From assembly GCA_903892035.1 (NCBI GenBank), contig CAITGV010000002.1:1714-65713 (forward strand): DNA of 64,000 bases, given 5' to 3'. The notes under the pieces are model-generated. The model did not search any database and was not told the DNA's origin. It saw only the letters and a program-made list of their open reading frames with translations. Position 1 is the stretch's first letter. The number at the start of each line of letters is the position of its first letter. Shown here piece by piece: positions 989 to 59,280 of the stretch. The translations under genes and the position numbers were made by a program. The stretch is from an uncultured bacterium (lineage in GTDB: Bacteria; Patescibacteriota; Minisyncoccia; Phycocordibacterales; UBA9973).

Positions 989-1094
989 CTTAAGGTTATT
1001 AAAAACGTCGGGAATGAAAATTATTCTTTCCGGCGTTTTACTATACCTATTCGTGAACCATTTACTCTATTTTTACAATTGTACTTTTGCAAAG

Positions 1095-2051: not shown

Positions 2052-2058
2052 AAATTAA

Positions 2059-3561: not shown

Positions 3562-3566
3562 AAATT

Positions 3567-3971: not shown

Positions 3972-3974
3972 ATA

Positions 3975-34200: not shown

Positions 34201-37200
34201 ATGCATATTCACCAATAAATCCTCCAGCGTATGAATCTGTATAATATCCTGTAACATGGCCAGTGGAATAATTTTGATCCATCAAGCTAGATAGTATATA
34301 TTGATCATTACTGTTATCTGTTGAATCATATACACCAATTAATCCGCCAACATCAGCATTTCCTTGTACATCACCAGAGAAATAATTCAAATTAAAATTA
34401 TTGGTGAATCCTGTATTACTTTCATTGTAAAGATAATAATTTCCAACAAGTCCACCAATTGCACCACCCTCCGCTGAAACATTAGAGGTCGAATAATTAT
34501 TTTCCATTGTGAAATTTACTGAACGATTTGAAACCCAATTCTCAAGATCTAAATTTCCAATTAATCCACCAGTATTACTATAACCTTCTACTGTGCCAGT
34601 TGAATAATTATTTGAAATATTTACTGAAATATCAATATTTCCATTTTCTTGGTCTAGATAAAAGTATCCAAATAAGCCTCCCGTGTAATCATCTCCATCA
34701 ATATTTGTAACATTTCCAGAATAATGATTACCAGTAAATGTTAGAGTACCTTCGTAGTTATTGTAATTTCCAATGAGTCCACCAGTGTCACTATTTTGAC
34801 CATTCGAAATATCATTTTCAGCAAACGAATTTGTAATACTTACAACTGAACTATTATTTTGAATTAATTGACCAATAAGTCCTCCCACATCATATCCATC
34901 ACTTATTAGTCCGACTGTATGAGAACTATTTGAAATAGTAAGTCCAGCTGTGTCGTTACTTTGATATCTTCCTGAAATAGTAGCCGAGCCAATAAGTCCA
35001 CCAATCTGATTGGAACTACTATTTATCATACTCGTAGATGTTGAATTTGAAAGTGTAATTCTGGCACCAGATTGATCAACGTTATCCATATAACCAAACA
35101 GTCCACCCACGCAATATATTCCACTAATAATTCCGTTTGAATTTATATTACTGAATACAGATGAATAGTTATTTGTTGCTTGCACATATCCACCAATACC
35201 ACCTGTATAATATTGATTTGAAGTAACATTTGCATTACTTACAATATTTGTAAGCGTTAAATTATTTCCACTACCAAATAATGCACCAGTGCCACTACTT
35301 GCATTAGTTGAATTAATATTTCCATTTACAACAAGATTTAAAATAGAAGCACCATTGGTATTTTGCAACAAGCCCACTGCATAACTTAATGAGTCATCAA
35401 TATTTACGTCAATACTATTTCCACCACCATCAAGTACTCCACTGAAAGGAATTTTTGTACCAATCATTATATGATTGCCCTCATCAGCGCACTCCAAACT
35501 ATTCATCAATAAATAATGTTTATCAAGTAAACCAACATTATCCATTTCTTCAAATTGAGCGCAAGTGGAAATTTGATATTTATTATTTGCTGTTCCCTCT
35601 CCACTACCAGAATAAGTTGAAGAGAATAGATTTGACCTTAGTGTTGGTAAATTATCTGCATTTGCTTGCCATGTTGATGTAAAGTTCCAAGAAGCAAGTG
35701 GTGCATTGGCATTTGTATCTTTGAAATAATTTGGGTCAAATCCATCTGTATTTACAGGTGAACATCCAGACACATCTTCATTGTGTGCACACCCAACAAC
35801 CCCTGTATTTGTATAGTCATAAAAATTATTTGTAAGCGTACCGCCATTTACTCCAGTGATTCCTCCGGTGTTGTTTAAGAAACTCGAAACAAATCCAGTA
35901 GCAAAAGAATTTGAAATACTTCCAGCATTATAGCCAGAAAGACCAGCACCATCATCTCCATTATTATATCCAGTAACACTACCAGTGGCATAAGAGTTTG
36001 ATATTGTTCCATAATTCAAGCCAGAAAGACCTCCGGCATATTGAGACCCTACAACAGAACCAGTTGCAAAAGTATTTGTAATAATACCTTCATTTTGACC
36101 AACAATACCACCAACCGCATCAGTAGCTGAAACTGCTACAGATGAATAAGAATTAAGAATATGTCCACTACTCATCGAATGTCCAGCAATACCTCCTATC
36201 CATTGTGCCCCAGAAACAGTACCTGATGTATAAACATTTTCAATATGTCCGTAGTTGACTGCTGTGACTGCACCCACATTGTCTTGATTGGTCGCAAAAT
36301 TAACATTTTCTAAATTTAAGTCATAGACCTTTCCGTCACTATTTAGATTGCTGAACAACCCCGCACTTGCACCGGAAAGATTTTCATACAAATGATTAAT
36401 TGTATAACCTTGACCATTAAAGCTTCCACTAAAATCTACAATTGGAGAAAAGCCCTGACCAAAATTATTTGACCAATTTATTGTATCAGTACAGTCAATA
36501 TTATTTGTCAGAATGAAGTTGTCGTTTTGATAATTTCCAACATCAGAGAGCTGAGTACACTTCGATATTTTATATGGGTCACTCACTGTTCCTGTTCCGC
36601 CATCAAAATCCTGTGGTGCTGATTGTGCATTTGTAAGTTTCGGATATGTACCGAGTTGTGTATGCCATATATAGAAATCCCAACTTGATATTGGATCGTT
36701 AAAAGTATTATTGAAGAAGTAATGCGCATCTGGTGAACCAATTGTATTTACTGGTTCACATCCAGGGAAATCACCTTCATTACTAGTACAATTATCTGAA
36801 TTGGAATTTAATTGGTCGTAGTAGTCGTTTCCAAAATCTACGGAATTATATCCATAGTAACCAGCAAAACCAGCATAAGTATCCAAGAAATTTGAAACAG
36901 CTCCAGCTGAAAATGAATTGTAAATATTTACATTTGAATCTGTCCAACCAACGAATCCACCAGCAACATTTCCACTACCATCTCCTGTAACATTTCCAGA
37001 AGAATATGAATTAAATATATCAATAATATTGTTTGCTTGCCCTACAAGACCTCCTGCCATCGTGTGACCAAGAACATTTCCAGTTGAGTAAGCATTATTT
37101 ATTAGTATAAAACCATTTGCTTGACCAACGAGACCTCCTGTATATACTTCAGAACTAACATCTCCCGTAGAGAAACTTTGATTGATAGTTGAAAAAGATT

Positions 37201-40200
37201 CCATGTAACCAACAAGTCCTCCGACACCATAGTCAACCAAACCATTTGGAGTGTTCTTTGTCACAGCTCCAGTACTAGAACTTGTATCAATAAGTGACCC
37301 ACCTGTGACAATACCAGCAAGACCACCAATCCCTCCAGCACTATAATTATCTGTAACGGCGCCTGATGAAACACTATTAACTATATAACTACTGTTTTCA
37401 ATATAGCCCACAATACCACCAACTGCACTTTCTTCATTATCATCAGTTGTAGAAGTAACTGTTGCAGATGAAGTGACATCGTAAATATTTGTACTATCTG
37501 CGTAACCAACAAGTGAGCCAATGCCTGGATAGTATCCATTGTTTGAAGTTGATACAACACTACCAGTTATATTTACATTTCCAATTGTCGCACCTTGTGC
37601 ATCTGTAAACAAACCTACATCAAAATTTTCAGCATTAATATTTATATTTATTGTGTGACCTCCACCGTCAAAACTTCCTGTGAAATAATTATTATTATCA
37701 CCTATCATCACACCATTACCAAGTGATGCACAGTCAAGATTTGCATCAAGAACATAACTACCAGAGAGATTATTATTTATATCTACAAGTTGCTGACAAG
37801 TTGAGATATGTGTGGGATCAATACTGCCAAACACTATTGCAGAAAGTGTTGGGTAAGTGCCAGGATTTAAATGCCAAATATTTTCAAAGTCCCAATTATT
37901 TAATGGAGCATTTGTAGAATTAGTTTTGAAGTAAGAAGTATTAACAGATATTGGATCATTTACAGGCGAACAACCAGATTGATCACCATTGTTTGTACAG
38001 CCCGACTGACCTGAACCAAAGAAATCATAATAACTATTTTCATAATAAGTATCGCCATCATCATAACCAACCATACCTCCAGTATCTTGATTATAATTTG
38101 TTATATAACCAGTAGCAAAACTATCAACCATTGCTCCGTCAAAAAAACCAACAAGACCACCGGCATCTTGACCACCCAAATTTCCAGTTACATCTCCACT
38201 TGCATATGAACTATTAATATTTGTGTAATAATTGTAGCCGACAAGACCTCCTGCTGTATCAGAACTTACTACGTTTCCTTGTGCGTATGAATTGGTAATG
38301 CTTGAAAACTCTGCATCTCCTATAAGTCCTCCTGCATCATAAACAATATTTACATTTCCTTTTGCGTAATCTTCATAAAAATTAGAATCACCTGCATACC
38401 CCACAAGACCACCACCACCTGTATCAATATTTGTACCCTGCATTGAAACATTTCCTGTTGTAAAACTACCACCTATTTCTGAATTATTTTCTACATACCC
38501 AGCAAGTCCGCCTATTGATTCCACATTATCTCCACCAGTAATATTGGCCGAAGATGAACTATCATAAACACTAGAACTGTTTGCATAACCAACAAGCCCT
38601 GCTACTGTTTGCCAAAAGAAAGAAGAACCAGTGACACTTCCTGCAATATGAGCATCTCCTATTATTGCTCCGTTTGTGTTTTGAAATAAAGCAACGTTAA
38701 ATGATGTGTAATCATTTATGTCTACCGCTATAGTGTGTCCGCCCCCATCAAACAATCCAGTAAATGGATCAACAGTACCAACCATAATATTATTATGTTC
38801 AGCTGTACAATCAAGATTTGTTATTAGTTTGAAATATTTATCTAACAAATCATATTTATTTATTTCTTCAAATTGAGAACATGAAGTAATAAGATAAGGT
38901 GACAAATCTGTGCCATCTCCAGCACCTGAAAATCCCGTTGAATATGTTTGTAGTATTGGAAGTGTTGAATTATTTGTTTTCCAAAGCGTAGAAAAATTCC
39001 ATTTATCAAGTGGTGCAGTACTTGATGTATTTACAAAATGATTTTGATCAGCGCCATCAGTATTTACCGGAGTAGCACACTCGCCTCCGCCCATACCACC
39101 CAAAGCACCATCACCTTCACAATTTACCTGACCACCAACGGTTTTGTCGTAGTAATTGTTTACAATTGTACCTACAGAATTTCGGCCGAATAAATTTCCG
39201 ATATATGTATCGCTTGCAAGTGGAGTTTGAGTGTATCCTGAACCATTATTGAAATAAATACCACTAGTAGTAAATGAATCCATCACTGGTCCATAATTGT
39301 AACCAGAAAAACCTCCAATGTATGTGTTGTTAAATGGATATGTAATTCCTTCAGCCATGACACTTCCAGAGGAATAACTTTTATCAACTATTGAATTATT
39401 GTAACCAGAAAAACCTCCAACGGTGCTATAGCCATGTACTGTACCTGTTGCAAAAGAATTTTCAATTATAAAATAATTTAAACCAACAAAACCACCAACG
39501 TTATAAGTTCCTATCACATCACCCGTAGCATAAGAGTTTTCAATTACTCCTTGTGCTTCATTTCTACCAACAAGTCCGCCTGCACCTTCTGTACCCGTAA
39601 CATTTACAGATGAATGAGAATTAATAATTGTATCCGAGTAATCATGACTCCCCACAAGTCCACCAGTGTCACAAGAATTACTTGTTACTGTACCAGTTGT
39701 GTAGGTATTTGAAATACTTCCATAGTTACTTCCAACAAGCCCACCAACATCACAACCTCCACTTGTATTAATTATATTTACATTTTCTAAACCAACATTT
39801 TTTATCAAAGAACCATTTTCAGTAATTCCAAAAAGTCCAGCAAATTGATGGTCTGTATCGTGTTCATATAGATTTGAAATAACATAACCATTTCCATTGA
39901 GAGTACCAAAAAATTTATTTCCAGCATCTGGTCCGATTGGTAAAAATCCAGCACCATCATTCCAACTTACTGTATCACTACAATCAATGTTGTTGTTTAA
40001 AACATAAACATAATTTGCATTTAAACCAAGGTTGATGTTTTGCAATTGGTAACAAGTAGAAATCTGAAACGGATTTCCCAATGTACCAACACCTCCTGCA
40101 AAAGTATCAATGGAATCCGAAGCCAAACGATCCAGCACTGGCAGATGATTAAAGGCTGTGGTCCATATTGTTGTACTGTCCCAAGCATCAAGCGGAGCAT

Positions 40201-43200
40201 TATCAAAATTATTTAAGAAATAACTAGGATCAGGACTTCCGATAGTATTCACAGGTGAACAACCAGAAATGTCACCATTGTTTGTACAATTCATAACACC
40301 TGACGCAACTTGATTGTAATAACTATTTGTAAATGTATTACCACCCATATCTTCACCATCAATAGCGCCATACCAACTTGCAAAATTTTTCAAATTTCCC
40401 GTAAAGAAAGAGTTACTAAAAGTTGTATCTAAACTTGCAGTTACTAATCCCCCACCATTTGAAGCAGAATCTACGCCATCAATAATTCCTGAAGCATATG
40501 AATGAGAAATAGTTACATGGTCAGTATAAAATGCTACACCTCCTAACGATGTTTGCCCTGTAACATTACTTGTAGAATATGAATTATCAATATCACCGTA
40601 ACCAAAATAGCCCGCGAGTCCACCCATATACCCAGGACCCGAAAGACTACCTGTTGAGTAACTTTCAATCATATCTGATGCGTTTGAACATCCAAGTATT
40701 CCACCTATAGAATAATCAATATCAAGCAAAGGATTAATATTCAAATTTCCTGTTACATAACTTTTATCAATTGTTGACGTAACCAAATCACCCACAAGAC
40801 CACCAACAGTTGAAGCATTATCTAACTCTGGAGAAATAATATTTCCAGAATAGGATGTATTTGAAAAATATGTACTATCAGAATATCCAACAAGTCCACC
40901 GATATTTGGCCATGAACCATTGTTTGCAACATTTATAATATTTACACTTGAGTGAATATTTCCAATTAAAGAATTTTCAATATCTGCTGAAAATGACCCG
41001 ACATTGTTCATAGCCGTAATCGTGCCTGCGATATTTAGATTTTGAACCGAAGCACCATCAATGTATTGGAATAGACCAACACTAATTTCGTCTCCAAAAG
41101 TATCATCAATAGCAATCGTGATTGTATGGTCTTGTCCATCAAAATTTCCATAAAATGGCAACGATGTCCATCTCGAACCTACCATTATATTGTTTCCAAA
41201 TGAGGAACAATCAATATTATTATTCAATACATAATACGCGCCAAGATTCAAATTTATATTTTCAAATTGCTGACATGTTGTGATTTGATATGGATTACCA
41301 GAAGAACCGTCTCCACCAGCAAAGTTTGAAACAACTCCGTTGTTGAAATAATATGTACCAACACTTGAATTTCTATTTTGTGTAATGTCTTCATTTACAC
41401 GAGAATCTAGAAGAGTCCAAGTTGAATCATCATTACTTGCGTATAGATTCCAACTTATTGGATCTCTTGCTGTATTATCACCGGCTGTCCTCCATCTATA
41501 GCCATCAAAATTCACACCCTCACCCATATCAATATGAAGTATAGAGTGACCTGTCTGATTGTCACCACCACCAACTCCAAAATTATTATCTTGCCACTTT
41601 GTGTAATTATTTCCATCTATAGCCATAAATGGAATATTTTCTTTTGGATTATTTCCACTAGGATTAGTCGCTACAAAAGGTATTTCTGGAGAAATTATTT
41701 GTCCCCCAACCTCAGGAAAAAATTCTCCGACTTGAATACAATTGTTTGAACAATTTGCATCTGGACCAGCATCGCGTCTTTTTGTAATATCCCATTTCAA
41801 ATATCGGTACGAAGGAACAACAACATCATCTGCCGAAATATTTACAAGTCTTGGCAAAAAGCCAACAGTTTGATTCCAAATATCACCATCCCAAGCATCC
41901 ATTGGTTTTGCTGAAAGATTCGTAATAAAATATTTTGAATTTGGAAAACTTTCAGTGTCTACAGGTTTGCAACCATTTATACCTTGCTGATAAGTACAAG
42001 TATTTATTTGTGAATTAATCTGGTCGAAATACACATTTGTATATGTCGCGCCAGTATCGTAACCAACAAAACCTCCAAAATTATCAATAAAACTTATTAC
42101 ATTTCCTTTTGAAAAATCATCATTAAATTGATCACTGCTACTTGTGTAACCAATAAAACCTCCAGCATATGAACCACCATCAAGTCCATCTACATTCCCC
42201 GATGCATATGAGTGTTCTATTATATCTCCACCATCTGTGTATCCAATAAATCCTCCGGCAGTACCACTTGCGTGAACTGTACCAGTTGCGTATGAGTCGC
42301 TGATATATACACCTCCGTTTTGTGACGCACCAGAAAAACCTCCGACATAATTACTTCCGAGTCCACCATCAACATTTCCAGAAGCAAAACTCTCTGTTAT
42401 CGTTGAATTATCAGAAACACCAAAAAGTCCACCATATCCTGACGCGTTGGAATAATCTCCCGCTGTAACATTACCAGTCTCGTATGATTGACTTACAGTT
42501 GATAGAAATGAATAACCTATAAGACCACCAACGGTATGAAGTGTATCACTTGCTGACGCATTTATGGTTCCAGTTGATGAACTATTTTCTAAAGTTGAAT
42601 TATCAATTTCACCAATAAGCCCACCAATTTCTGGATAATAATTATCATTAAATAATGTAGTAATGTTTACACTAGAATTTACATTATAAAAATCAGAACT
42701 ATTATCAGCATAAGATACCAAACTACCTATTGTATGAGGAGAAATAATGCTTCCAGAAATATTTAAATCATGAATTGTTCCACCACTTACATATTGAAAA
42801 AGTCCAGCGCCGTCATAATCTCCATTTTCATCATCAATACTTATATATATAGTATGACCTCCACCATCAAAACTTCCAGTGAAAGGAATGCTATTTCGTA
42901 AATTTCCAATCATTACACTATTTCCGTCGCCTTCACAATGTAAATCAGTATCTAAAATATAAACATCAGAAAGATTATTATTTATATTTTCAAATTCTCC
43001 ACAAGTAGTAACACGTGTTGCAATCTGTAGAAAAGGATATCCATTATTTGTATTTCCATTAATACTCCAAGGTAGTGCAAAAGCCCAACCCGCATTTACA
43101 AACGTGCTTTTTGTTTTTAGAGTATTTGTGTTAGCACTTGTAAGGCCCGTGCAGTTTCCACCTCCACAACCATCTGACTGGCCAGCTGTTTGATTGTCCC

Positions 43201-44191
43201 AAAATGAATTAGAAAAAATTTGCCCGCCATTTCCTCGTCCCATAAAAGCTCCTGTGGATGTTGCTCCACCTCCGACACTTCCATAACTAAATGAATTTGA
43301 AATATTAGCAATTGAATAACCGACAAATCCTCCGACATCCTGAACTGTTCCTGTAACATTTACACCCGAATAAGAATTATCGATACTTCCTCCATCCGCT
43401 TCTCCGATAAGTCCTCCTACTTGAGAAGTACCAACTATTATACCTGTTGCATATGTCTCAGAAATTGTTCCGCCACCCATATATGCTGAAATTGCGCCCG
43501 TGGTTCCGCCACCAGTAATGTTTACATTTTCCAACCAAACCCTCGTGATAACAGCACCTGTCGATAATCCCCCAAAAAGAGATGCATTGTTTACTAATGG
43601 TTGATTGATAAAAAGACCAGATATTTTATACCCCATTCCATCAAAGTGACCAACAAAAGTATTATTAATATCTCCAATCGGCATAAAACCATCACCTGTA
43701 TTGTATGGATCAACATTACAATCAATATTACTTCCGAGTACATAGTACGCAGAACGATCGTTGGCCATATCTTCTAAATCAGAACAAGAATTTATTACGT
43801 AAGGATTATTAGAAATACCAGCACCTTGAGAAATTTGTGGAGCGATTTTATTTTGCGGAGGAGTTGGTTTTTGATTTAAATCTTGCGGTGTAGAAATTGG
43901 TGCTGGTGTAGGATCCGGACTTGGTGTTGGAGTTGGTGTTGGCAATGAAGCAGGGTCAGGCAATGGATCAGGAGTTGGTGTCGGAATCGGATTTGGATCA
44001 GGTGTAGGATTTGGTGTTGGAGTTGGAGTTGGATCAGGTGCCGGCGTCAAATTCTGATCTATACTCGGGGGAATAGAATCATCCGCATTAGCAATATAAA
44101 TCAATGCTTGAGATACTGGAGCGACTGTAAAAATAACAATTAATAAATTTAATAATAAAAACTTTCCACCAACTAATAAAATTTTTTTCAT
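31259..44191 (-). CDS. giant (4310 aa) cell-surface protein: signal peptide, PT-rich linker, about eight GLUG-motif modules, discoidin (F5/8 type C)-like domain, PA14 domain, FN3-like domain, Gly12 run, PG_binding_1-like C-terminus
   Basis: Uninterrupted 12.9-kb ORF. Recurring module N-P-Y-x-I-x-x-C-x-Q/L ... Y-x-L-x-x-x-I-D-C ... F-x-G-x-F-D-G-x-G-H-T-I followed by many GGLVG/GGFIG GLUG units. Discoidin-like near 41402-41809. PA14-like (VGADDEARVYVDDNLILDHWY) near 33305-33667. FN3-like near 31760-32047. LQIFLNANGFLVAKTGPGSPG near 31310-31516. Confidence 0.85.
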   Translation of the reverse strand: MKKILLVGGKFLLLNLLIVIFTVAPVSQALIYIANADDSIPPSIDQNLTPAPDPTPTPTPNPTPDPNPIPTPTPDPLPDPASLPTPTPTPSPDPTPAPISTPQDLNQKPTPPQNKIAPQISQGAGISNNPYVINSCSDLEDMANDRSAYYVLGSNIDCNVDPYNTGDGFMPIGDINNTFVGHFDGMGYKISGLFINQPLVNNASLFGGLSTGAVITRVWLENVNITGGGTTGAISAYMGGGTISETYATGIIVGTSQVGGLIGEADGGSIDNSYSGVNVTGTVQDVGGFVGYSIANISNSFSYGSVGGGATSTGAFMGRGNGGQIFSNSFWDNQTAGQSDGCGGGNCTGLTSANTNTLKTKSTFVNAGWAFALPWSINGNTNNGYPFLQIATRVTTCGEFENINNNLSDVYILDTDLHCEGDGNSVMIGNLRNSIPFTGSFDGGGHTIYISIDDENGDYDGAGLFQYVSGGTIHDLNISGSIISPHTIGSLVSYADNSSDFYNVNSSVNITTLFNDNYYPEIGGLIGEIDNSTLENSSSTGTINASASDTLHTVGGLIGYSFLSTVSQSYETGNVTAGDYSNASGYGGLFGVSDNSTITESFASGNVDGGLGSNYVGGFSGASQNGGVYISDSYATGTVHASGTAGGFIGYTDGGDIIEHSYASGNVDGLDGGSYAGGFIGYTSSSDQFNDDFSKGNVISFIDNFGGFVGYDTGATYTNVYFDQINSQINTCTYQQGINGCKPVDTESFPNSKYFITNLSAKPMDAWDGDIWNQTVGFLPRLVNISADDVVVPSYRYLKWDITKRRDAGPDANCSNNCIQVGEFFPEVGGQIISPEIPFVATNPSGNNPKENIPFMAIDGNNYTKWQDNNFGVGGGDNQTGHSILHIDMGEGVNFDGYRWRTAGDNTARDPISWNLYASNDDSTWTLLDSRVNEDITQNRNSSVGTYYFNNGVVSNFAGGDGSSGNPYQITTCQQFENINLNLGAYYVLNNNIDCSSFGNNIMVGSRWTSLPFYGNFDGQDHTITIAIDDTFGDEISVGLFQYIDGASVQNLNIAGTITAMNNVGSFSADIENSLIGNIHSSVNIINVANNGSWPNIGGLVGYSDSTYFSNTSYSGNIISPELDNASTVGGLVGDLVTSTIDKSYVTGNLNINPLLDIDYSIGGILGCSNASDMIESYSTGSLSGPGYMGGLAGYFGYGDIDNSYSTSNVTGQTSLGGVAFYTDHVTISHSYASGIIDGVDSASNGGGLVTASLDTTFSNSFFTGNLKNFASWYGAIDGEDMGGNTFTNSYYNQVASGVMNCTNNGDISGCSPVNTIGSPDPSYFLNNFDNAPLDAWDSTTIWTTAFNHLPVLDRLASDSIDTFAGGVGTLGNPFQISTCYQLQNINLGLNANYVYVLNNNIDCSDTVSWNDGAGFLPIGPDAGNKFFGTLNGNGYVISNLYEHDTDHQFAGLFGITENGSLIKNVGLENVNIINTSGGCDVGGLVGSNYGSISNTYTTGTVTSNSCDTGGLVGSHDYSDTIINSHSSVNVTGTEGAGGLVGRNEAQGVIENSYATGDVIGTYNVGGFVGLNYFIIENSFATGTVHGYSTVGGFSGYNNSIVDKSYSSGSVMAEGITYPFNNTYIGGFSGYNYGPVMDSFTTSGIYFNNGSGYTQTPLASDTYIGNLFGRNSVGTIVNNYYDKTVGGQVNCEGDGALGGMGGGECATPVNTDGADQNHFVNTSSTAPLDKWNFSTLWKTNNSTLPILQTYSTGFSGAGDGTDLSPYLITSCSQFEEINKYDLLDKYFKLITNLDCTAEHNNIMVGTVDPFTGLFDGGGHTIAVDINDYTSFNVALFQNTNGAIIGDAHIAGSVTGSSFFWQTVAGLVGYANSSSVYDSSSSANITGGDNVESIGGLAGYVENNSEIGGSFTTGNVSMQGTNIDTGGGGLVGYAGDSNFYEDYAKGNVNIVYDAGGLIGDAEFSSITNSYAQGNVVSSDTAGGLVGYNYYTNINSSYASGDVTGNLGGQDAGGLVGFFDGAMVDSFATGYITNYNQDTGGMVGYDDGDTYYENSYYDFFGSGQSGCTNNGDQSGCSPVNDPISVNTSYFKTNSTNAPLNNWDFENIWHLNPGTYPTLSAIVFGSIDPTHISTCQQLVDINNNLSGSYVLDANLDCASLGNGVMIGDNNNYFTGSFDGGGHTINININAENFDVGLFTDAQGATIGNVNITGSVVSTSNNGYYPGIGSLVGYADSTNIYDVTSSATVTSTTDDNEESAVGGIVGYIENSSYIVNSVSSGAVTDNYSAGGIGGLAGIVTGGSLIDTSSSTGAVTKNTPNGLVDYGVGGLVGYMESFSTINQSFSTGDVSSEVYTGGLVGQANGFILINNAYSTGNVLGHTMAGGLVGQANNIIDIFNSYSSGNVTGDGSGNVAGGFVGWTDSNVNIYNSFSAGAVSNFLDTYAGFAGYYGYNSVDFGNDYYDQLNSNSDNCTSNEGDFPGCEPVNTIGSPDAHYFFNNTFNDPISSWDFYIWHTQLGTYPKLTNAQSAPQDFDGGTGTVSDPYKISKCTQLSDVGNYQNDNFILTNNIDCTDTINWSNNFGQGFSPIVDFSGSFNGQGYTINHLYENLSGASAGLFSNLNSDGKVYDLNLENVNFATNQDNVGAVTAVNYGHIENVYTSGTVSGAQWIGGIAGHSMSSGHILNSYSSVAVSATDAVGGIVGQNEGIITNTFATGSVVGSQYAGGLSGLNYGTISNSYATGSVTGYNNGDDGAGLSGYNAGSISNSFATGFVSSFLNNTGGITGVNGGTLTNNFYDYTNTGVVGCAHNEDVSGCSPVNTDGFDPNYFKDTNANAPLASWNFTSTWQANADNLPTLRSNLFSSTYSGSGEGTANNKYQISTCAQFEEMDNVGLLDKHYLLMNSLECADEGNHIMIGTKIPFSGVLDGGGNSIDVNIDDSLSYAVGLLQNTNGASILNLVVNGNINSTNASSGTGALFGSGNNLTLTNIVSNANVTSNQYYTGGIGGYVQATNNYSSVFSNINSNGIISGIYCVGGLFGYMDNVDQSGARITLSNSTSTSMINSSSNQIGGLIGSATISGRYQSNDTAGLTISNSSHTVGLISDGYDVGGLIGQLIQNNSSVVSITNSFAENDISNGQNSDTGGLIGNYNNYEGTLTFTGNHYSGNVTNIDGDDYTGGLFGYFYLDQENGNIDISVNISNNYSTGTVEGYSNTGGLIGNLDLENWVSNRSVNFTMENNYSTSNVSAEGGAIGGLVGNYYLYNESNTGFTNNFNLNYFSGDVQGNADVGGLIGVYDSTDNSNDQYILSSLMDQNYSTGHVTGYYTDSYAGGFIGEYAYSGGIPLILSNSYSTSTVTGINYVGGLIGSMDEYGILSSVYFAGNVVSTDSGYKGGGLIGETFSSALITDSFVKGNVSGFSLGYAALVGDMKGEPVISSNNYYDKTASGGLDCAGYSDVMENCTAVNTDGSDANYFVANDSNAPLTSWDFSGEPIWDVNTSHLPTLHALVSDDPIGAYTAEYWSGIVSDSEIIIPDRPADLTTNTDSVNYDWGYDGDPVGVGNSVFTARYTETVDLSAGNYIFTVGADDEARVYVDDNLILDHWYYQGSSTSINVNLDGGNHTIRVEYLGVGVPDYLHFGYVLSPFDGGTGLSGDPYQISTCQQFMDINDFLSSNFVLENDLHCAGNGNNIMVGSYNQETGFHGEFDGGGHTIDFAIDDSAGNSDGDGLFQYVFESYIHDLNLTGTISSIHNVGALTSLAVFTEIVNVNSSVTVTAGPNGGFYPDIGGLVGFGLMVGINLHTTGDVNASTSDTIHSIGGLIGAINGSPYIAESSSTGNVTAPDNDDQSGAGGLIGIDDDSHLYSDFAIGNVHGGNGNSYVGGLVGASQNGNLDAENSYARGNVSGANYVGGFIGYLDGTDQITNSYSTGNVDGIDAGGSGGGFVGYSSGNDSLTNLFSVGTVSNFTTDYGGFAGYLSGDDTILNDYFDKTNSGQNDCVFGQSINGCSAVNTDGNSPNYFKYNNYVAPLSSWSFTNDGVWGIVPNDFPQLTWMLDITGPTVTSSVSNVTKTSATLNGNITDTGGQNASIRGFYWGTTGDYGQTITQNSGPYGTGAFSTNLSNLSCGTTYHFASYAVNSYTQMTTEDSTFTTSSCSNGGGGGGGGGGGWYVAPTPTPTTTNTCQSGYVLDSSNKCVIVNVNNTQNNTTVDPYGVKPIIAGSLTGYKFPKNLAPNSTDISVKRLQIFLNANGFLVAKTGPGSPGQETNLFGPATKKALIAFQEYHFKQILAPQGLKKGTGLFWTYSRKVVNEILAKTVTTSKK

Positions 44192-44253
44192 AAAGTAAAT
44201 ATATTATATCAATTATGAAATGAATAACGAAATATTTTAAACTGGGGAAAACA

Positions 44254-44285
44254 AAAAAACTTTTATATTTCTATAAAAGTTTTTT
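44254..44285. terminator. AT-rich 14-bp-stem hairpin AAAAAACTTTTATA-tttc-TATAAAAGTTTTTT between the two giant genes
   Basis: Read directly. Perfect palindromic arms with T-run after the hairpin on the minus strand. Confidence 0.4.
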
Positions 44286-44307
44286 TGTTTATTCAAATTA
44301 TATAATT

Positions 44308-47300
44308 TTACTTCCCTGCCAAAATCATCTTCTTAATCAATGCTCTTGTCAGAGGTCCAAGTGCACCAGTTTGTTGAAGCTTGTTTGCTTTCTGGAATTT
44401 TTTAATAGCTGCTACTGTTTTTAGTCCCAAATAGTTGTTTTCATTTCCAGGTGAACCTGCACCAGTCTTTGAGATGATATAGCCATTTGCATTTAAGAAT
44501 ATTTGAAGGGCTTTTATAGTGAGATTTAAGTTTCCATATGAAAGTGTTTTCTTTAGAACGAGTAACGGGTTTGTATCTCCGCTACCACCATTTCCAATAG
44601 ATGAATTATTGTTTGTATTTGATGCAGGTGGTTGATTTGTTGTTGGTGGTGCAATATATCCTCCACCTCCACCACCACCGCCGTGGCTTATATTTGTATT
44701 TGTTGGACAAGTACTTGTAATAAATGTTGCATCAGGAGATACTCCAGTTCCTGCAGAATTTGTTGCATAAGCCTGATAATGGAATGTAGTACCACACGCA
44801 AGCCCTGTGATTGTTGAAGTAAATGTTCCAGTTGAAAAGCTTGCGGTAATTGTTGTTTGTGAACCATATGAATTTGTTGGTCCATAATAGAATCCATGCA
44901 CGGTAGAATTCTCGCCACCATTTGCTGTAATATTTCCATTCAATACTGCACCTGAAATTGTAACGCTCGATGATGTTGGAGTTGCAATTGTCGGTTGAGA
45001 TACTGGACCTGCAGTTACAGCTAGTGAGAATATGTCAGTATTTAATGAGTGGTGTATTTGATTTGGAACAATGTCTGCGCCATTTCCAGAGAATTTGATT
45101 ACGCGAGTGTTGTATGTATCTTGGTACACTTGATGGTCTGCATCTGTTGGATAACTTTCTGTATCGTGATATGGATAACTACTCATTTCATTGAATGGTA
45201 GTGGGAGGATAGTATCACCAAGTGGACGGCCGTAGTTCTTTTGATAGTCCCAAGATTTGTATATGAAATCACGAACTGTACCATCTGCTTGTGTTGGTAC
45301 TGCATACTTAAGTGACAATTCATCACCTTGCACCATGATGACAAATTTATTATCTACATCAGAAAGTAGCGAAGTGACATCACCATATTTTGTAGCATTA
45401 CCAGTGATTTGATTTCCAACAAATGCATTTGTAAGAGTGTCGTATACTGGTTGCTCCAATTTCATTTTTGGATCAGATGGATTTGTTAATTCTTTTTGTG
45501 ATACACCACGAAAACCAAGATTCGCAGAATATGCTGGTTCATTTGTGACAGTGACTGTTTCGTCTGGAGTGGTGTCGACTGCGAGATAGTCAATGTCCCA
45601 TTGGCGAATATTACTCATCGAAATTATTCGAATAGTATTGTCTTTGATATTCATTCCAGAAAGGTCAATGACTTTTGTCTGTGTTCCTTCAGCATTTACA
45701 AGGTTGCGAGATGCATGAGTAGTATCAGCACGAGTTGTGATAAATGGATTTTTGTCAGCAGGCATATCGACAAACACACCACTTGAATTTTTGTACTGGA
45801 ATTTATCGCGACTGATATCAGATGGCTTTGTTGGATATGGACCTTCCTTACCACGCTTTATAACAAGCTTGAGATTTGCAGGGGTTGTAGAATCATTTGA
45901 AAGTTTTACCTGCAAATATGATGGAGTTGCATTTGGAGTCACAGTACTGTGCCAATACATATTGTCATCTTGAGCTACAAGGTTTTTTACATCGCGACCA
46001 TTTTCATCTGTGACTGACACTGGAGCAGAGGCATTTTTTGAGACTGTGTGAATCGTGCCATTGTCACGATAGTCTGGATACACATTTACATTTGCACTGT
46101 GGTCAATGATTTGCAACTGTGCCTGGTCGTAGTAATCTACTTCGTTCAATTCTGTTGTATTTTTTATATCGTAGTATGTCTCACCATTTACTGTATGAGG
46201 TACAAGTGAACCGCTTGGCATTTGTGCGTAAGCTAGGGGTTGCGCATATGTACTATTTGCATTTGGGTCCTGATACCAAGGATTTGCTTTCCAAAGAGCT
46301 CCACTCATTCCTAGGTCTGGTGCTCCAGAAGTTGAAACGTCTGTTATGAATTTATATTCGTGACCATCCCATGTAAACAAATATGGACACGATGCTGAGA
46401 ATGGACCTTGGAGTGGGCTTGTGTTCGTATGATTATCAGAAGTTGTAGAGCGAACCATGAAATATAGAGATGAGGCAGACATACCACCGTTATTTAAATT
46501 GTGAGAAGTTGTTGAATCACCTAAAGCAGAAAGATACCCTGCATTGAAATCATTAATGTAATATTTTAGCGTGAATACATTATTTGTTGGATTAATTGAA
46601 TATATCGAACCTTGCCCACCGTACGTAGTTCCGTATAAGGTTCCGTTTGATTCGACGAATGGAGCATTAGGATTTCTACCATGCGTACCGTCAAAGTCAT
46701 GAATGTCGGTGAATGTAGAATTTGAAGGATTGAACGAAAATACGGTACCTTGATTATTTACCCCTCCATACACTGTTGTACTAAACAAGATTCCATTTAC
46801 ATTTAATAGCGAAGCCTGGGGAGAGTTTCCATCCGTACCATTAAAATTATGAATATCAGTGAATGTAGAATTGGAAGTATTGAATGAAAAGATGATACCT
46901 TGACCATTTGCTCCGCCACTTTGTGTTGTGCCATACAGAATTCCACCTACATCCGTAAATCCTGCATAAGGATATGCTCCACTTGTATTGTCAAAGTCGT
47001 GAAGTTTTGTGAATGCATTTCCATTTGTGGTATCGACAGAGAAGATAGTGCCGTAGCCGTTTGTACCTGCATTTACAGTTCCACCATAGAGAACTCCATT
47101 TACATTTAGAAGTTCGGTATAAGGATTTGCACCATTGGTCGAATCGAAATCATGAATGTCTGTGTATGTTGAATTTGAGGGATTGAATGAGTATATTGCA
47201 CCATAATTATTTGAGCTAGCATACGCAGAACCATATAGGATTCCACCCACATCAACGAGAGCATTGTAAGGATTTGCACCGTGAGTGTTGTCGAAGTCAT

Positions 47301-50300
47301 AAACATCGGTATATGTATTATTTGAAGGGTCAAAAGAGAAAATAGTACCATAACCATATGCTCCACCATATACAGTATTACCATACAATATTCCACTTAC
47401 ATTTATCATTGTAGCCTGAGAATTTGATCCGTGAGTTAGATCAAAATTGTGCACTACAGTATATGTTGAATTTGCAGGATTGAAAGAGAAAATAGTACCG
47501 TAACCATTTGGTCCCTGATATTCTGTCGTTCCATAAAAAATTCCATTAACTTCAACCAAGGCATCTCGTGGATTCGCTCCATCGTGATGACTTGTCGCAT
47601 CAAGAAATTCTTGCCATGTCGCATGAGGACGACTGTCATAAACTACTTCACTATTTGAAGCAACGTCTGTATTCCAATTAAAATTGCCAATACCATCAAA
47701 ATAAATATTTGATATCAATGGCTCTCCTGCTTTCTCTGCCTTTGCCCACACCCAAGTATTACCAGAGCCGTCATTGTATTTGGTTCCTGTCTTTGTGCCA
47801 GATAGTGAACAGTCAGATGGTGAACCAGTACAACCTACTTGAGATTGAAGAGTTTCCCATGCACTTGTATCGAAGTTCCAGATATATAGTGATGTGTGCA
47901 TTGTATTATTTGCATCACCGTGACCTGTCCAGTTGATTGTGTATTTTGGATTGACTATACCTGTTAGGTCTTTTGATATTTTGTAGACTTGAGAATCGTA
48001 ACCTCCACCAGAGAGTGCTGTGATCCAGTAGGTACCATCTTTTGTAAATGTTTTACTTACGTTACCTGAGAGAACTCCTGGATTTGTAGGAGAAACTTCC
48101 ACATCGTGACTTTCATAACCTGTGATTGTGACAGCGTGGTTACTTGTGCCAAAAGCTTGGAGTGTTGGAAGAGTGCCTGTGTTTGTTTGCCAAACATCTG
48201 TGAAATTCCAAGCTGAAAGTGGTGCTTGTGAGTGAGTATTTTGGAAGTAGGTTGAGTTTGGTGAGTCGGTGGTGTTGACGGCGTTACAGCCGGAAATATC
48301 AGACGTGCCAACACAACCAGTTTGACCTGAAGCTATTTGGTCGTAGAAATTGTTGGTATAATGATTGCCACTGTCGTAGTCGTGACCAGCAAATCCACCG
48401 TAGCTACTGTCGAAATGAATTACAGAACCAGTTGAGAACGAATTTACATATGTATCATCACCATTTTGACCTGCGAACCCTCCACCACTATCTCCACCGC
48501 TAACTCCATCTACATTTCCAGATGCGTATGTATTTGTGTATGTATTATAACTTCCACCATATCCAATAAACCCACCTGCTTCATATGAACTCGTCACATT
48601 CCCTGATGCATATACATCTTGGAAATTTACATGATCAGCATAACCAATAAAACCACCGCCACCATATGTTATCGACACATTACCGGATGCATAGCTTTGT
48701 AAAATACTTGTATTGTCTGCGCCACCAATAAAGCCTCCCGCAGTATCCATATCATTACCTACCGTTACATTTCCAGTTGCAAAACTTGTATCTATAACTG
48801 AATTTGAATCATAACCAATAAATCCACCAATATCGTCCGTAGAACTGATTACATTTCCAGTGGCACTACTTCCTGAAACTACGTCATTAATAGTAGATCC
48901 AATAAGTCCACCTGTATAAGAAGTTCCACCTGTTACAATAACCGAAGAATTCACATTCGAAATTATTGAATATTGTGAATATCCAGAAAGAGCTCCGACT
49001 TGCTCGTAAAGTTCCGTTATATTTCCTGTAATATTTAGATTCTGAATTATTGCATTATTTGTCTGATTAAAAAGACCAGCACTACTGTAATTATCATTTA
49101 CATCGTTTATTGCAATTTGTATTGTGTGTCCTTGTCCGTCAAAACTTCCAGAAAACGGAGTGCTAACACCAACCATTATATTGTTTGCTTCACCACGACA
49201 ATCCAAATCTGTGGTGAGAACATAGTCACCAGAAAGATTGTTGTTGATGTTTTCGAAATCTGCACAAGTTGCAATTGAGGATTGGACTGTAGTTTGAGCA
49301 ACATCATCAGAAGTTAGATTGTGAAGCGTTGGCAAGTGACCTCCGTCTGCATCCCAAATGTTTTGGAAATTCCATTGATCGAGTGGAGCGTTTGTAAAGT
49401 TGCCTTTGAAATAGTTTGGTGAGTGTCCGTCGGTGTTGACTGCGGTACAGCCAGAAATATCAACACCTGAAACACAACCCGGTATACCACTTTTTGTTCG
49501 GTCATAAAAATTATTAACTGAATCATAATCACCAAAGTCACCACCAGCAAATGATCCACCTGTATCAAGATTTGTTAGTGTTCCAAAAGAAAATGAATTT
49601 GATATATTATTCAAATCTGATAGACCTATAAAGCCTCCAATATCAGAACCAGCACTTATTCCGTCTACATTTCCAGAAGAATATGAATTGGTTATTGTGC
49701 TATCTTGAATGTATCCACCAAAACCACCAGCACCACTACTACCACTAACATTACCTGTGGAATAAGAATTTGAAATAATTGTAGGGGTGTTTGTAATATA
49801 AGTTTGTCCAATCAAGCCACCCACATAACTAGTTCCAACAACAGATGCACCTGCAAAATAGTTTTGGTCTAGCGTTGCATTTAATAAATTACTTCCGCTT
49901 TCATCATCAGAATAATAATACCCAATAAGTCCACCAGCACTGTTAGCTCCAGAAGTTACTGTTGATGTAGAATAATTTTTATTAAAGTTAAAATTTAATC
50001 CAACCGATCCCAAAGTACTAAGTTCTAAATCACCAATCAGTCCACCCACTCTCGAATCGACTCCGCTGACTGTCGCGTCTGAATGGTTAGTAGAAACTAC
50101 TACATTTGTATCATAAGTACCATCTGCCCATATATCCATATAACCAGAGAGACCTCCAACACCACTATAACCATGTATCAAACCAGAACTATAATTATTT
50201 AATATATTTATATTTAAATCAGCAGTTTGAATATAATTGATTACATCAAAGTCTCCAAAAATTCCACCAACATTACTACCATCTGATGTTATATTTCCAG

Positions 50301-51174
50301 AGAAGTGATTACCTGTAAATGTCATATTTATAGTGTCATCAGTTTCTCCATTGTTGACCAATCCCACAATACCTCCGACATTACTATGGTCAGACGTAAT
50401 ATCACTTTCTGCATATGAATTGGTTAAAGTAAAACTAGCATTATTATTTACGTACAAATTACCTATAAGCCCACCCACATTATTATCAAATGAACTTATG
50501 GCTCCTGTGGTATGAAAACTATTTGTTATATTTACAGCAGTGGTACTACTTTCAGATTGTTGATAAGAATCATATATTTGCCCAATTAGTCCTCCCACAC
50601 TACCGTAACCTGAAATAATTCCCGTAGTTGAACAGCCTGTAATGTTAACAATATTATTATTTGTATTCGTTAAGTAACTAATAAGACCACCGACATAAGG
50701 TGCATCTGTGGTTGATACATTTGCTGTCACGTGATCATTTGTAAGCGTAAGTCCTCCATCATTTACAGTAGCAATAAGTCCACCGGTGTTGGACATACCA
50801 CCACCCACAATACTTCCAGCAACGGTAAGGTTTGTAATTGTCGCACCATTTGTCTGACCAAACAGACTAGCGTACCAATCTCTAATATTTATATCAACAG
50901 TAACCGTATGATTATTACCATCAAATGTTCCCGTAAACGGGTCGGTTGTTGCAACTTCAATATCATTGCCTAAATCCTCACCAGCTGGCCCACAATTTAA
51001 ATCATTTGCAAGAATATAACTGCCAGCTAAATCATTATTAATATTTTGGAAATCGTTACAAGTAGAAATAGAAATCGGCCCATCAGCCTTTGTGCTATTA
51101 ATATTAAATAAAACAAAACCAATTATTGATAAAAATGTGATAAACAAAACAGATGAGAATTTTTTGTAATTCAT
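44308..51174 (-). CDS. giant (2288 aa) cell-surface protein: signal peptide, GLUG-motif modules, 7-blade beta-propeller of about 48-aa repeats (GloVer/TIGR03803-like), further beta-rich region, FN3-like domain, Gly run, PG_binding_1-like C-terminus
   Basis: Uninterrupted 6.9-kb ORF. Seven repeats of pattern G-x-N-P-x-x-x-L-v-x-V-x-G-i-L-Y-G-T-T-x-x-G-G-x-x-G-x-G-T-I-F-S-F-N-P-S-N-S-T-Y-T-D-I-H-D-F (about 46570-47583). C-terminal LNGNITANGG ... CGTTFHYQAYATNSAG and KALQIFLNANGYIISKTGAGSPG. Confidence 0.85.
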   Translation of the reverse strand: MNYKKFSSVLFITFLSIIGFVLFNINSTKADGPISISTCNDFQNINNDLAGSYILANDLNCGPAGEDLGNDIEVATTDPFTGTFDGNNHTVTVDINIRDWYASLFGQTNGATITNLTVAGSIVGGGMSNTGGLIATVNDGGLTLTNDHVTANVSTTDAPYVGGLISYLTNTNNNIVNITGCSTTGIISGYGSVGGLIGQIYDSYQQSESSTTAVNITNSFHTTGAISSFDNNVGGLIGNLYVNNNASFTLTNSYAESDITSDHSNVGGIVGLVNNGETDDTINMTFTGNHFSGNITSDGSNVGGIFGDFDVINYIQTADLNINILNNYSSGLIHGYSGVGGLSGYMDIWADGTYDTNVVVSTNHSDATVSGVDSRVGGLIGDLELSTLGSVGLNFNFNKNYSTSTVTSGANSAGGLIGYYYSDDESGSNLLNATLDQNYFAGASVVGTSYVGGLIGQTYITNTPTIISNSYSTGNVSGSSGAGGFGGYIQDSTITNSYSSGNVDGISAGSDIGGFIGLSDLNNISNSFSFGTLTNLDTGGSFAGGDFGDYDSVNNFYDRTKSGIPGCVSGVDISGCTAVNTDGHSPNYFKGNFTNAPLDQWNFQNIWDADGGHLPTLHNLTSDDVAQTTVQSSIATCADFENINNNLSGDYVLTTDLDCRGEANNIMVGVSTPFSGSFDGQGHTIQIAINDVNDNYSSAGLFNQTNNAIIQNLNITGNITELYEQVGALSGYSQYSIISNVNSSVIVTGGTSYTGGLIGSTINDVVSGSSATGNVISSTDDIGGFIGYDSNSVIDTSFATGNVTVGNDMDTAGGFIGGADNTSILQSYASGNVSITYGGGGFIGYADHVNFQDVYASGNVTSSYEAGGFIGYGGSYNTYTNTYASGNVDGVSGGDSGGGFAGQNGDDTYVNSFSTGSVIHFDSSYGGFAGHDYDSGNHYTNNFYDQIASGQTGCVGTSDISGCNAVNTTDSPNSTYFQNTHSQAPLSAWNFTDVWQTNTGTLPTLQAFGTSNHAVTITGYESHDVEVSPTNPGVLSGNVSKTFTKDGTYWITALSGGGYDSQVYKISKDLTGIVNPKYTINWTGHGDANNTMHTSLYIWNFDTSAWETLQSQVGCTGSPSDCSLSGTKTGTKYNDGSGNTWVWAKAEKAGEPLISNIYFDGIGNFNWNTDVASNSEVVYDSRPHATWQEFLDATSHHDGANPRDALVEVNGIFYGTTEYQGPNGYGTIFSFNPANSTYTVVHNFDLTHGSNSQATMINVSGILYGNTVYGGAYGYGTIFSFDPSNNTYTDVYDFDNTHGANPYNALVDVGGILYGSAYASSNNYGAIYSFNPSNSTYTDIHDFDSTNGANPYTELLNVNGVLYGGTVNAGTNGYGTIFSVDTTNGNAFTKLHDFDNTSGAYPYAGFTDVGGILYGTTQSGGANGQGIIFSFNTSNSTFTDIHNFNGTDGNSPQASLLNVNGILFSTTVYGGVNNQGTVFSFNPSNSTFTDIHDFDGTHGRNPNAPFVESNGTLYGTTYGGQGSIYSINPTNNVFTLKYYINDFNAGYLSALGDSTTSHNLNNGGMSASSLYFMVRSTTSDNHTNTSPLQGPFSASCPYLFTWDGHEYKFITDVSTSGAPDLGMSGALWKANPWYQDPNANSTYAQPLAYAQMPSGSLVPHTVNGETYYDIKNTTELNEVDYYDQAQLQIIDHSANVNVYPDYRDNGTIHTVSKNASAPVSVTDENGRDVKNLVAQDDNMYWHSTVTPNATPSYLQVKLSNDSTTPANLKLVIKRGKEGPYPTKPSDISRDKFQYKNSSGVFVDMPADKNPFITTRADTTHASRNLVNAEGTQTKVIDLSGMNIKDNTIRIISMSNIRQWDIDYLAVDTTPDETVTVTNEPAYSANLGFRGVSQKELTNPSDPKMKLEQPVYDTLTNAFVGNQITGNATKYGDVTSLLSDVDNKFVIMVQGDELSLKYAVPTQADGTVRDFIYKSWDYQKNYGRPLGDTILPLPFNEMSSYPYHDTESYPTDADHQVYQDTYNTRVIKFSGNGADIVPNQIHHSLNTDIFSLAVTAGPVSQPTIATPTSSSVTISGAVLNGNITANGGENSTVHGFYYGPTNSYGSQTTITASFSTGTFTSTITGLACGTTFHYQAYATNSAGTGVSPDATFITSTCPTNTNISHGGGGGGGGYIAPPTTNQPPASNTNNNSSIGNGGSGDTNPLLVLKKTLSYGNLNLTIKALQIFLNANGYIISKTGAGSPGNENNYLGLKTVAAIKKFQKANKLQQTGALGPLTRALIKKMILAGK

Positions 51175-51198
51175 AGTAAATATAGTATACCACTTTTA

Positions 51199-51218
51199 CC
51201 CCCCCCAAAAAAAAAAAA
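51199..51218. repeat. Homopolymer tract C8 A12 (G8/T12 on the coding strand) 25 bp upstream of the 2288-aa gene start
   Basis: Read directly: ccccccccaaaaaaaaaaaa. Confidence 0.9.
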
Positions 51219-51245
51219 TTTATGCAATATTTTCTGTGGATAACA

Positions 51246-51288
51246 AATAGCGTGGCGGGGTACTCCCCGCCACGCTATTTGTTTTTTT
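51246..51288 (+). terminator. Strong GC-rich hairpin AAATAGCGTGGCGGGG-tact-CCCCGCCACGCTATTT followed by TTTTTTT on the plus strand only
   Basis: Read directly. 16-bp perfect stem. The U-tract is on the plus strand although both flanking genes are minus-strand. Confidence 0.55.
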
Positions 51289-59257: not shown

Positions 59258-59280
59258 TTGTTTATTATACTATAAATTTT

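Follow-up and report, generated by a model that had tools for sequence, protein, structure and literature searches.

A 64,000-nt stretch of contig CAITGV010000002.1 (assembly GCA_903892035.1) of an uncultured Patescibacterium, hereafter called the window, carries on its minus strand an open reading frame (ORF; 44308..51174, ATG start) encoding a 2288-aa protein with seven tandem GloVer (TIGR03803) repeats. Structure prediction folds these repeats, with high confidence, as a seven-bladed beta-propeller, and the protein is regarded, with moderate confidence, as a secreted, non-enzymatic, modular and wall-anchored surface protein of a Paceibacteria or "Nomurabacteria"-like cell that binds a surface structure on another cell. 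All recognisable parts of this protein come from known families (GloVer, GLUG/M26_N, FN3 and PG_binding_1), and modular giant surface proteins are known and common. New is the position of a GloVer propeller inside a giant, GLUG-scaffolded protein of a Patescibacterium with a peptidoglycan-binding anchor. As judged from sequence comparisons, the coupling of the propeller to a CRTAC1-type module in a conserved cassette and the occurrence of natural variants with and without the propeller are also new. The result is a useful annotation more than a surprise.

The following parts were delineated in the 2288-aa protein (residues, position in the window, strand, basis of the assignment):

Residues 1-30, 51085..51174 (-): putative Sec-type signal peptide or signal anchor, MNYKKFSSVLFITFLSIIGFVLFNINSTKA followed by DG (read from the translation)
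Residues 31-625, 49300..51084 (-): GLUG-type module 1 (BLASTP to the neighbouring 4310-aa protein; phmmer)
Residues 626-1010, 48145..49299 (-): GLUG-type module 2 (Pfam Peptidase_M26_N; BLASTP to the same neighbour)
Residues 1011-1197, 47584..48144 (-): "mid" region of ~190 aa (homologues in P0267, P0012 and L092, described below)
Residues 1198-1543, 46546..47583 (-): seven GloVer (TIGR03803) repeats, a predicted seven-bladed beta-propeller (NCBIfam, AlphaFold2, Foldseek)
Residues 1544-1588, 46411..46545 (-): connector …SLYFMVRSTTSDNHTNTSPLQGP from the propeller to the next module (conserved in P0267 and L092)
Residues 1589-2030, 45085..46410 (-): beta-rich module from SCPYLFTWDG to YNTRV (CRTAC1/ASPIC-UnbV homologues, AlphaFold2)
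Residues 2050-2156, 44707..45027 (-): FN3-like domain (BLASTP to the neighbour; PDB match to titin FN3)
Residues 2157-2219, 44518..44706 (-): Gly8 run and Pro/Asn/Thr-rich low-complexity linker (read from the translation)
Residues 2220-2279, 44338..44517 (-): PG_binding_1, putative C-terminal anchor (Pfam PF01471)

The initial annotation, made from the sequence alone, had placed seven repeats of about 48 aa at 46570-47583 and had compared them to the blades of a TIGR03803-type propeller. These coordinates were correct and correspond to residues 1198-1535, with the array extending here to residue 1543 (position 46546). The number of repeats and their motif were upheld by seven TIGR03803 stretches, but the period is ~50 aa and not 48 aa. 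The blades start at residues 1198, 1248, 1298, 1347, 1398, 1448 and 1498, and the last one ends at residue 1543. They are 46-51 aa long and, according to the alignment of the seven blades, have a pairwise identity of 39-61% (mean 51%). The search with the NCBIfam model TIGR03803 (GloVer), which had been suggested as a check, gave a score far over the family cut-off (223.7 bits versus 44, E = 1e-67), distributed over the seven stretches. The propeller region has more than 7,600 matches among database proteins at E ≤ 1e-3; among the matches listed, the nearest GloVer family members are 41-48% identical to it. The family alignment consensus of TIGR03803 likewise comprises seven units. A recent amplification of the blades was considered and ruled out by their level of identity and by the absence of a tandem repeat at the DNA level, which indicates that the blades are old.

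The AlphaFold2 model of residues 1187-1545, built with an alignment of 100 family members, had a mean pLDDT of 92.7 and a pTM of 0.90, and DSSP assigned seven sets of four strands to it. Comparison of the model with the PDB in the Foldseek program found Kelch propellers (KLHL2, KEAP1 and designed SAKe proteins) with E-values of ~1e-10 to 4e-13 and a probability of 1.00. The propeller fold that had been claimed for the repeats was in this way borne out by the prediction, with Kelch propellers as the nearest solved folds. Kelch propellers (KEAP1, KLHL2/3, designed SAKe) have four-stranded blades as well, but the resemblance is at the fold level only: these structures have six blades versus seven here, sequence identity amounts to 12-20%, and no Kelch Pfam match was found. 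The query-normalised TM-scores are ~0.5 because the Kelch structures are six-bladed. PDB sequence searches with the propeller and with the module behind it gave nothing significant, that is, no sequence-related solved structure.

The array agrees with other GloVer proteins in having seven ~50-aa repeats with the consensus …G.LYGTT..GG….GT.FS…, and the protein follows the "choice-of-anchor" organisation of the family, with a signal-like N-terminus and a separate C-terminal anchor domain, here PG_binding_1. Family members (the best 120 of more than 7,600) are 300-608 aa long, and their recorded Pfam tails are mostly T9SS (PF18962) or TIG. In contrast, the propeller described here is internal to a protein of 2288 aa, has GLUG modules before it, is flanked by the mid region and the CRTAC1-type module, and is combined with a PG_binding_1 anchor.

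Behind the repeats the initial annotation had mentioned a further beta-rich region, which proved to be a discrete module of ~440 aa (residues 1589-2030). Sequence similarity identifies it as the uncharacterised C-terminal module of bacterial CRTAC1/ASPIC-UnbV family proteins. Its homologues, labelled "CRTAC1 family protein" or "ASPIC/UnbV" in the sources, are 25-35% identical along the full length and carry upstream FG-GAP/VCBS and UnbV_ASPIC domains or, in archaeal proteins, CARDB. An exhaustive profile search with the module, whose profile took in some flanking columns, yielded 13,153 cluster representatives with E ≤ 1e-3, of which 2,272 reached E ≤ 1e-30. No Pfam or NCBIfam match to the module was obtained even at E ≤ 10, and its profile found no PDB sequence match. 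As in CRTAC1/ASPIC-UnbV proteins, the ~440-aa module (SCP.L..WNG to YNTRV) stands behind a beta-propeller. Unlike in these proteins, the propeller is of the GloVer and not of the FG-GAP type, and the module is internal, being followed by FN3 and the wall anchor. The 2288-aa protein is not a member of the CRTAC1 family, as neither FG-GAP/VCBS nor UnbV_ASPIC (PF07593) was detected in it.

The AlphaFold2 model of the module (84 sequences) was mostly beta, with a pLDDT of 82.5 and a pTM of 0.85. Foldseek found no match in the PDB to the module as a whole. Its sub-domains, over 140-175 columns, matched galactose-/fucose-binding-type sandwiches (F5/8-C, CBM32 and fucolectin folds) with a probability of 0.9-1.0; among the structures matched were the lectin domain of lectinolysin, C-terminal domains of GH29 enzymes, and IFT25. 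This partial fold similarity suggests that the module may be a multi-sandwich, lectin-like binding unit.

The mid region, which precedes the propeller, gave no Pfam or NCBIfam match even at E ≤ 10. It ends in a conserved junction (...PHATWQEFLD) and is homologous to residues 638-827 of the protein P0267 and to the N-terminus of P0012/L092. P0267 is a 1211-aa fragment and, by sequence, the closest GLUG-bearing relative of the 2288-aa protein. It consists of a GLUG module, the homologue of the mid region, ~25 residues, and the connector with the module (51% identity); the mid-region match sits inside a BLASTP segment of 39% identity that also spans the GLUG module. According to the three-way alignment, exactly the seven-blade segment is missing from P0267. 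L092 (ENA ERZ19028522, scaffold_17985) is a 4-kb contig with a GC content of 38% from another metagenome. It encodes, in this order, a signal peptide, the mid region, seven GloVer blades, the connector, the module, and then the same …HIHHSLNTD… continuation, with GLUG modules absent, and is 45-48% identical to residues 1014-2076 of the 2288-aa protein. The L092 gene (nt 705-4003) is interrupted by a frameshift within blade 6, near nt 2160, and is called as two genes; the frameshift is either an assembly error or the mark of a pseudogene.

Two further relatives carry wall anchors. P0121, a partial protein of a metagenome-assembled genome, has the module (61% identity) at its C-terminal end, followed by poly-Gly and PG_binding_1. 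In P0204 (2276 aa, from the representative library), two GLUG+module units are combined with three SLH wall-anchor domains; the module, here lacking its SCP start, seems to be nested in the GLUG units, twice, which suggests that GLUG scaffolds may tolerate domain insertion. P0204 and P0267 resemble the 2288-aa protein in combining GLUG modules, the same module and a Gram-positive-type wall anchor. They differ from it in the lack of GloVer repeats and, in the case of P0204, in having SLH domains in place of PG_binding_1. From these relatives, mid region, seven blades and module make up a recurring cassette, in which the propeller is an optional insert and around which GLUG scaffolds and Gram-positive-type anchors are exchanged.

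The scan of JGI metagenomes for close relatives of the module found proteins of 25-27% identity at best, and among the 149 best module-family representatives not one carries GloVer repeats, which makes the full architecture an uncommon one. The identical 2288-aa protein is encoded on a 157.8-kb ENA metagenome contig and on four other contigs, and it is the sole member of its 90%-identity cluster. A precomputed label, PF27237 (AF_1625_C), is weak or faint on the 2288-aa protein and on P0012. Since these two have in common only the mid region and GloVer repeats, the label may denote the mid region.

The gene is adjacent to that of a still larger paralogue:

31259..44191 (-): 4310-aa paralogue with signal peptide, Pro/Thr-rich linker, nine GLUG modules, F5/8 type C, PA14, FN3-like domain, poly-Gly and PG_binding_1-like tail

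In Pfam, the 4310-aa protein matches Glug (2e-38), M26_N (4e-16), PA14 (7e-10, residues 3532-3619), F5_F8_type_C (8e-4, residues 853-952) and PG_binding_1 (1.3e-4). Its Pro/Thr-rich segment of ~90 residues behind the signal peptide has a weak TonB-like match.

Both GLUG modules of the 2288-aa protein start with a Cys pair in the motif …C.DF.NINN.L.G.Y.L..DL.C… and end with a second Cys pair and W-N-F…LPTL; in module 1 the head pair is C39/C61 and the tail pair is C567/C576. With module 2 as a phmmer query, residues 35-248 and 389-602 of module 1 were covered, and two modules were counted in the 2288-aa protein versus nine in the neighbour, each of the nine being bounded by conserved Cys pairs. 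According to BLASTP, residues 30-1010 align to many places in the neighbour with 27-42% identity. Module 1 is 38% identical to neighbour residues 2868-3536 (E = 1e-77), and module 2 is 40-42% identical to several of the neighbour's modules. Module 2 also matches Pfam Peptidase_M26_N (PF05342; E = 5e-10, best stretch 641-742). A PDB sequence search with the GLUG modules gave nothing significant. Repeated GLUG-type modules are likewise found in the GLUG/Peptidase_M26_N surface proteins, namely, in the N-terminal region of the streptococcal Zmp IgA1 protease and in gut-archaeal adhesin-like proteins. The 2288-aa protein differs from these in coming from a Patescibacterium and in lacking an M26 catalytic domain. 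A motif search found no HExxH in it or in the 4310-aa neighbour, and membership in the M26 peptidases was ruled out by this absence and by the confinement of the match to the non-catalytic Peptidase_M26_N region.

At the C-terminus, residues 2058-2156 are 43% identical to residues 4045-4143 of the neighbour (BLASTP, E = 3e-18). In the phmmer search of PDB sequences this FN3-like segment matched a titin FN3 region best (E = 5e-6), with contactin FN3 domains and FN3con weaker, and in Pfam it gave a weak match alone (Pur_ac_phosph_N at 0.085). The PG_binding_1 domain (PF01471) scored 43.1 bits versus a cut-off of 23 (E = 4.8e-11). The tails of both giants align through poly-Gly and the PG_binding_1 core LQIFLNANG…KTG.GSPG, and the same poly-Gly is followed by a longer linker in the neighbour. 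At the opposite end, the translation of the 2288-aa protein begins with a KK n-region and a hydrophobic core of 18 residues, with T-K-A ahead of a possible cleavage site; cleavage of the signal peptide after residue 30 is probable on these features.

The initial annotation had proposed that the two proteins share an overall plan of signal peptide, GLUG modules and an FN3-like and peptidoglycan-binding tail, and that they display different inserted modules. The plan was supported for the 2288-aa protein by the M26_N, PG_binding_1 and titin FN3 matches given above. The homology of the C-terminal cassette (FN3-like domain, poly-Gly, PG_binding_1) held in the FN3 identity and the tail alignment, and the common GLUG scaffold held with its two modules versus nine. 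As for the GLUG assignment, the modules are homologous between the two proteins (34-42% identity), but the Glug motif itself (PF07581) remains below threshold in the 2288-aa protein, with 17.4 bits at a cut-off of 20.5, versus 128.5 bits in the neighbour. The inserted modules are indeed different: the mid region, GloVer propeller and CRTAC1-type module in the smaller protein, F5/8 type C and PA14 in the larger. BLASTP found no counterpart of residues ~1010-2057 in the neighbour.

Most Patescibacteria have a Gram-positive-like envelope with peptidoglycan. According to the favoured reading, the 2288-aa protein would be exported by the Sec pathway via its N-terminal signal peptide, and the C-terminal PG_binding_1 would hold it non-covalently on the producer's own peptidoglycan through the Gly-rich flexible linker and the FN3 spacer. 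The mid region, the seven-bladed propeller and the lectin-like multi-sandwich module would together form a binding head adjoining the anchor, with the two long GLUG modules extending from it. The most likely role of the protein would be recognition of a surface structure, probably of a glycan, presented by another cell or by a particle, and with it attachment to a host or substrate. The 4310-aa paralogue would offer other binding modules (F5/8-C and PA14) on the same scaffold and anchor. Own-wall anchoring, ligand binding and an adhesive role are thus proposed from the sequence, and for both giants we infer the role of adhesin from the domains present and the mode of anchoring. An adhesin-like nature has been suggested for GLUG proteins of a gut archaeon (PMC9723798), and another study connects giant proteins of bacteria at large with cell adhesion (bioRxiv 10.1101/2023.11.21.568195). 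Cultivated Patescibacteria are all obligate episymbionts, whose ways of recognising and binding their hosts are described as largely unknown (PMC12206443); in such organisms a surface-binding role would mean attachment to the host.

Several points weigh against this reading. What GloVer repeats, GLUG modules or the CRTAC1-type module bind or do has not been reported; the literature search found no paper mentioning TIGR03803, none on GloVer repeats and none on GLUG in Patescibacteria. The lectin-like match covers 140-175 of the 442 module residues, with query-normalised TM-scores of ~0.2. The presumed head would lie beside the anchor, with the GLUG modules distal, which is the reverse of the arrangement in classical Gram-positive adhesins, and cleavage of the signal peptide is itself a reading of the translation.

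The clustering of the binding-type domains and PG_binding_1 at the C-terminus, far from the N-terminal hydrophobic segment, would also suit a tether of the reverse orientation, in which an uncleaved signal anchor stays in the symbiont membrane, the long GLUG modules serve as a spacer, and PG_binding_1, the propeller and the lectin-like head bind the wall of a host bacterium. Against it, the N-terminus resembles a standard cleavable signal peptide (short n-region, T-K-A and then DG), the C-terminal end of the relative P0204 is formed by SLH domains, a type that as a rule fixes a protein to the producer's own wall, and none of the results distinguishes own from foreign peptidoglycan; this orientation is considered unlikely. 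A similarly small chance is given to an envelope or matrix protein, or a glycan-scavenging one, that is, a variable surface coat binding polymers for uptake or shielding the cell. The galactose-binding-like sub-domains of the module and the PA14 and F5/8-C domains of the paralogue are typical of carbohydrate-binding accessory modules, the module is hosted mostly by CRTAC1 proteins of free-living, Acidobacteria-type organisms, and the gene island described below varies among relatives, as surface-coat loci do. However, the island has no transporter or glycoside hydrolase genes, its other two genes being of the DUF5666 and DUF285/PKD types, and the producer comes from an obligately episymbiotic group.

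The polar residues R, D, D, K, Y, N and R are invariant in the module across its distant homologues, the Pfam region matched by the GLUG modules is named after IgA1 metalloproteases, and one study ties giant proteins found in predatory bacteria to the digestion of cell walls (bioRxiv 10.1101/2023.11.21.568195). These observations would agree with a cryptic enzyme, in which the GLUG modules (if they are beta-helices) or the 440-aa module would act as a lyase, hydrolase or peptidase on the host wall, with the propeller as the targeting part. This is very improbable given that HExxH is lacking, the M26 match is limited to the non-catalytic N-terminal region, no enzyme family was found for the 2288-aa protein in Pfam or NCBIfam or among PDB sequences, and the fold matches are to binding modules, not catalytic domains. 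The locus holds two candidate surface proteins that have scaffold and anchor in common and differ in their predicted binding heads, in an apparently strain-variable island. It also places GloVer propellers and the CRTAC1-type module, both large families, in a defined context, that of a putatively wall-anchored extracellular protein.

The affiliation of the genome agrees with the adjacent rpoA gene, which has 68-75% identity to those of 80 species representatives labelled Candidatus Nomurabacteria, Paceibacteria, Paceibacterota or Patescibacteria. Four secreted-protein genes on the same strand make up an island of 22.8 kb (29283-52061 in the window) between grpE and a PaaX_M-like/dnaK pair: those of the 214-aa DUF5666 protein, the 2288-aa protein, the 4310-aa paralogue and the 652-aa DUF285/PKD protein, the two smaller products also having signal peptides. 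The other genes of the window are housekeeping ones (ATP synthase, RF-1, pentose-phosphate enzymes, GAPDH, GatB, Obg, DnaK, GrpE and ribosomal proteins). Among 55 relatives, the PaaX_M-like gene comes a median of 1.3 kb after grpE, and dnaK a median of 2.1 kb after it (range 9 bp to 7.5 kb), and no homologues of the four island genes were found in the loci of the 80 related Paceibacteria genomes examined. The gap between grpE and dnaK appears to be a variable hotspot. Conserved synteny was ruled out, with 0 of the 80 related genomes having any module of the 2288-aa protein within 10 kb of rpoA. A foreign composition received no support: GC at third codon positions (GC3) of the mid, GloVer and module segments is 0.26-0.28, between the values for rpoA (0.21) and dnaK (0.31). 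The change in GC skew at 44-48 kb probably reflects a Gly content lower than that of the GLUG modules.

The other features of the island and its intergenic regions are as follows:

29283-31241 (-): 652-aa signal-peptide protein with three DUF285/PARCEL-repeat stretches (Pfam, 1e-56) and a PKD-like domain
44249..44290 (-): 19-bp AU-rich hairpin with a U-run, terminator-like, just past the stop codon of the 2288-aa gene and before the 4310-aa gene (RNA fold -17.8 kcal/mol, z = -6.4)
51184..51218 (-): putative promoter region with extended -10 TGgTATACT (51184-51192), 9 nt ahead of the ATG, absent from the consensus-scan list
51242..51283 (-): 19-bp perfect GC-rich hairpin in the gap between the 214-aa and 2288-aa genes (terminator scan; RNA fold -36.6 kcal/mol, z = -9.9)
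51307-51951 (-): 214-aa signal-peptide protein with a weak DUF5666 match (2.8e-5), directly upstream of the 2288-aa gene

The 652-aa gene begins 17 bp past the end of the 4310-aa gene; its product matches an NCBIfam Mbov_0838-type lipoprotein (3e-31) and, weakly, the pilus protein PamR of the CPR (4e-4).

A T12G8 homopolymer tract (51199-51218, minus strand) adjoins the putative extended -10, 25-44 nt upstream of the ATG at 51174. Homopolymer tracts in the promoters of surface-protein genes are classic slipped-strand switches of phase variation. Both giant genes have a similar upstream element (51175-51192 and 44212-44222) consisting of TG.TATA(C/A)T, then ATATTTACT(TT), then ATG, and a leader resembling TGATATAAT-ATATTTACT is also found ahead of the 4310-aa gene. 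Neither gene has an evident Shine-Dalgarno sequence, and the distance from the -10-like hexamer to the start codon is 9-11 nt, which suggests that their transcripts may be near-leaderless. The arrangement further suggests that the giant genes could be separate transcription units, duplicated along with the promoter.

A more far-reaching and doubtful proposal can be built on the cassette and this tract. The unit of mid region, GloVer propeller and module might be an exchangeable head that is dedicated to host recognition in surface proteins of Paceibacteria, with the propeller nested as a whole cassette in a small beta-sandwich, and gain or loss of the propeller together with the T12G8 tract might change the specificity of binding, or expression, from strain to strain. 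If true, this would be the first clue to function for the large GloVer family and the CRTAC1 C-terminal module. The proposed halves of the sandwich (residues ~1152-1197 and ~1544-1594) are contiguous in P0267. A contiguous flank match in P0012 was apparent only, as the alignment ran on into the first P0012 blade. The idea of a split FN3 domain for the propeller flanks had no Pfam support, and the flanks showed no similarity to the protein's own FN3 domain.

Outside the island, a 210-aa ORF at 19385-20017 (+), with a match to IS200-like Y1 transposases (5.5e-8), lies among housekeeping genes on the strand opposite to that of its neighbours. Upstream of the rpoA cluster, at 56800-61005 (-), three ORFs of 422, 398 and 574 aa are present. 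The 422- and 574-aa ORFs gave no Pfam match in a search that covered these two and not the 398-aa ORF. Most of the 80 related genomes have counterparts of the 422- and 398-aa ORFs with ~40% identity, and the 574-aa protein has Cys-rich CxxC motifs at its start.

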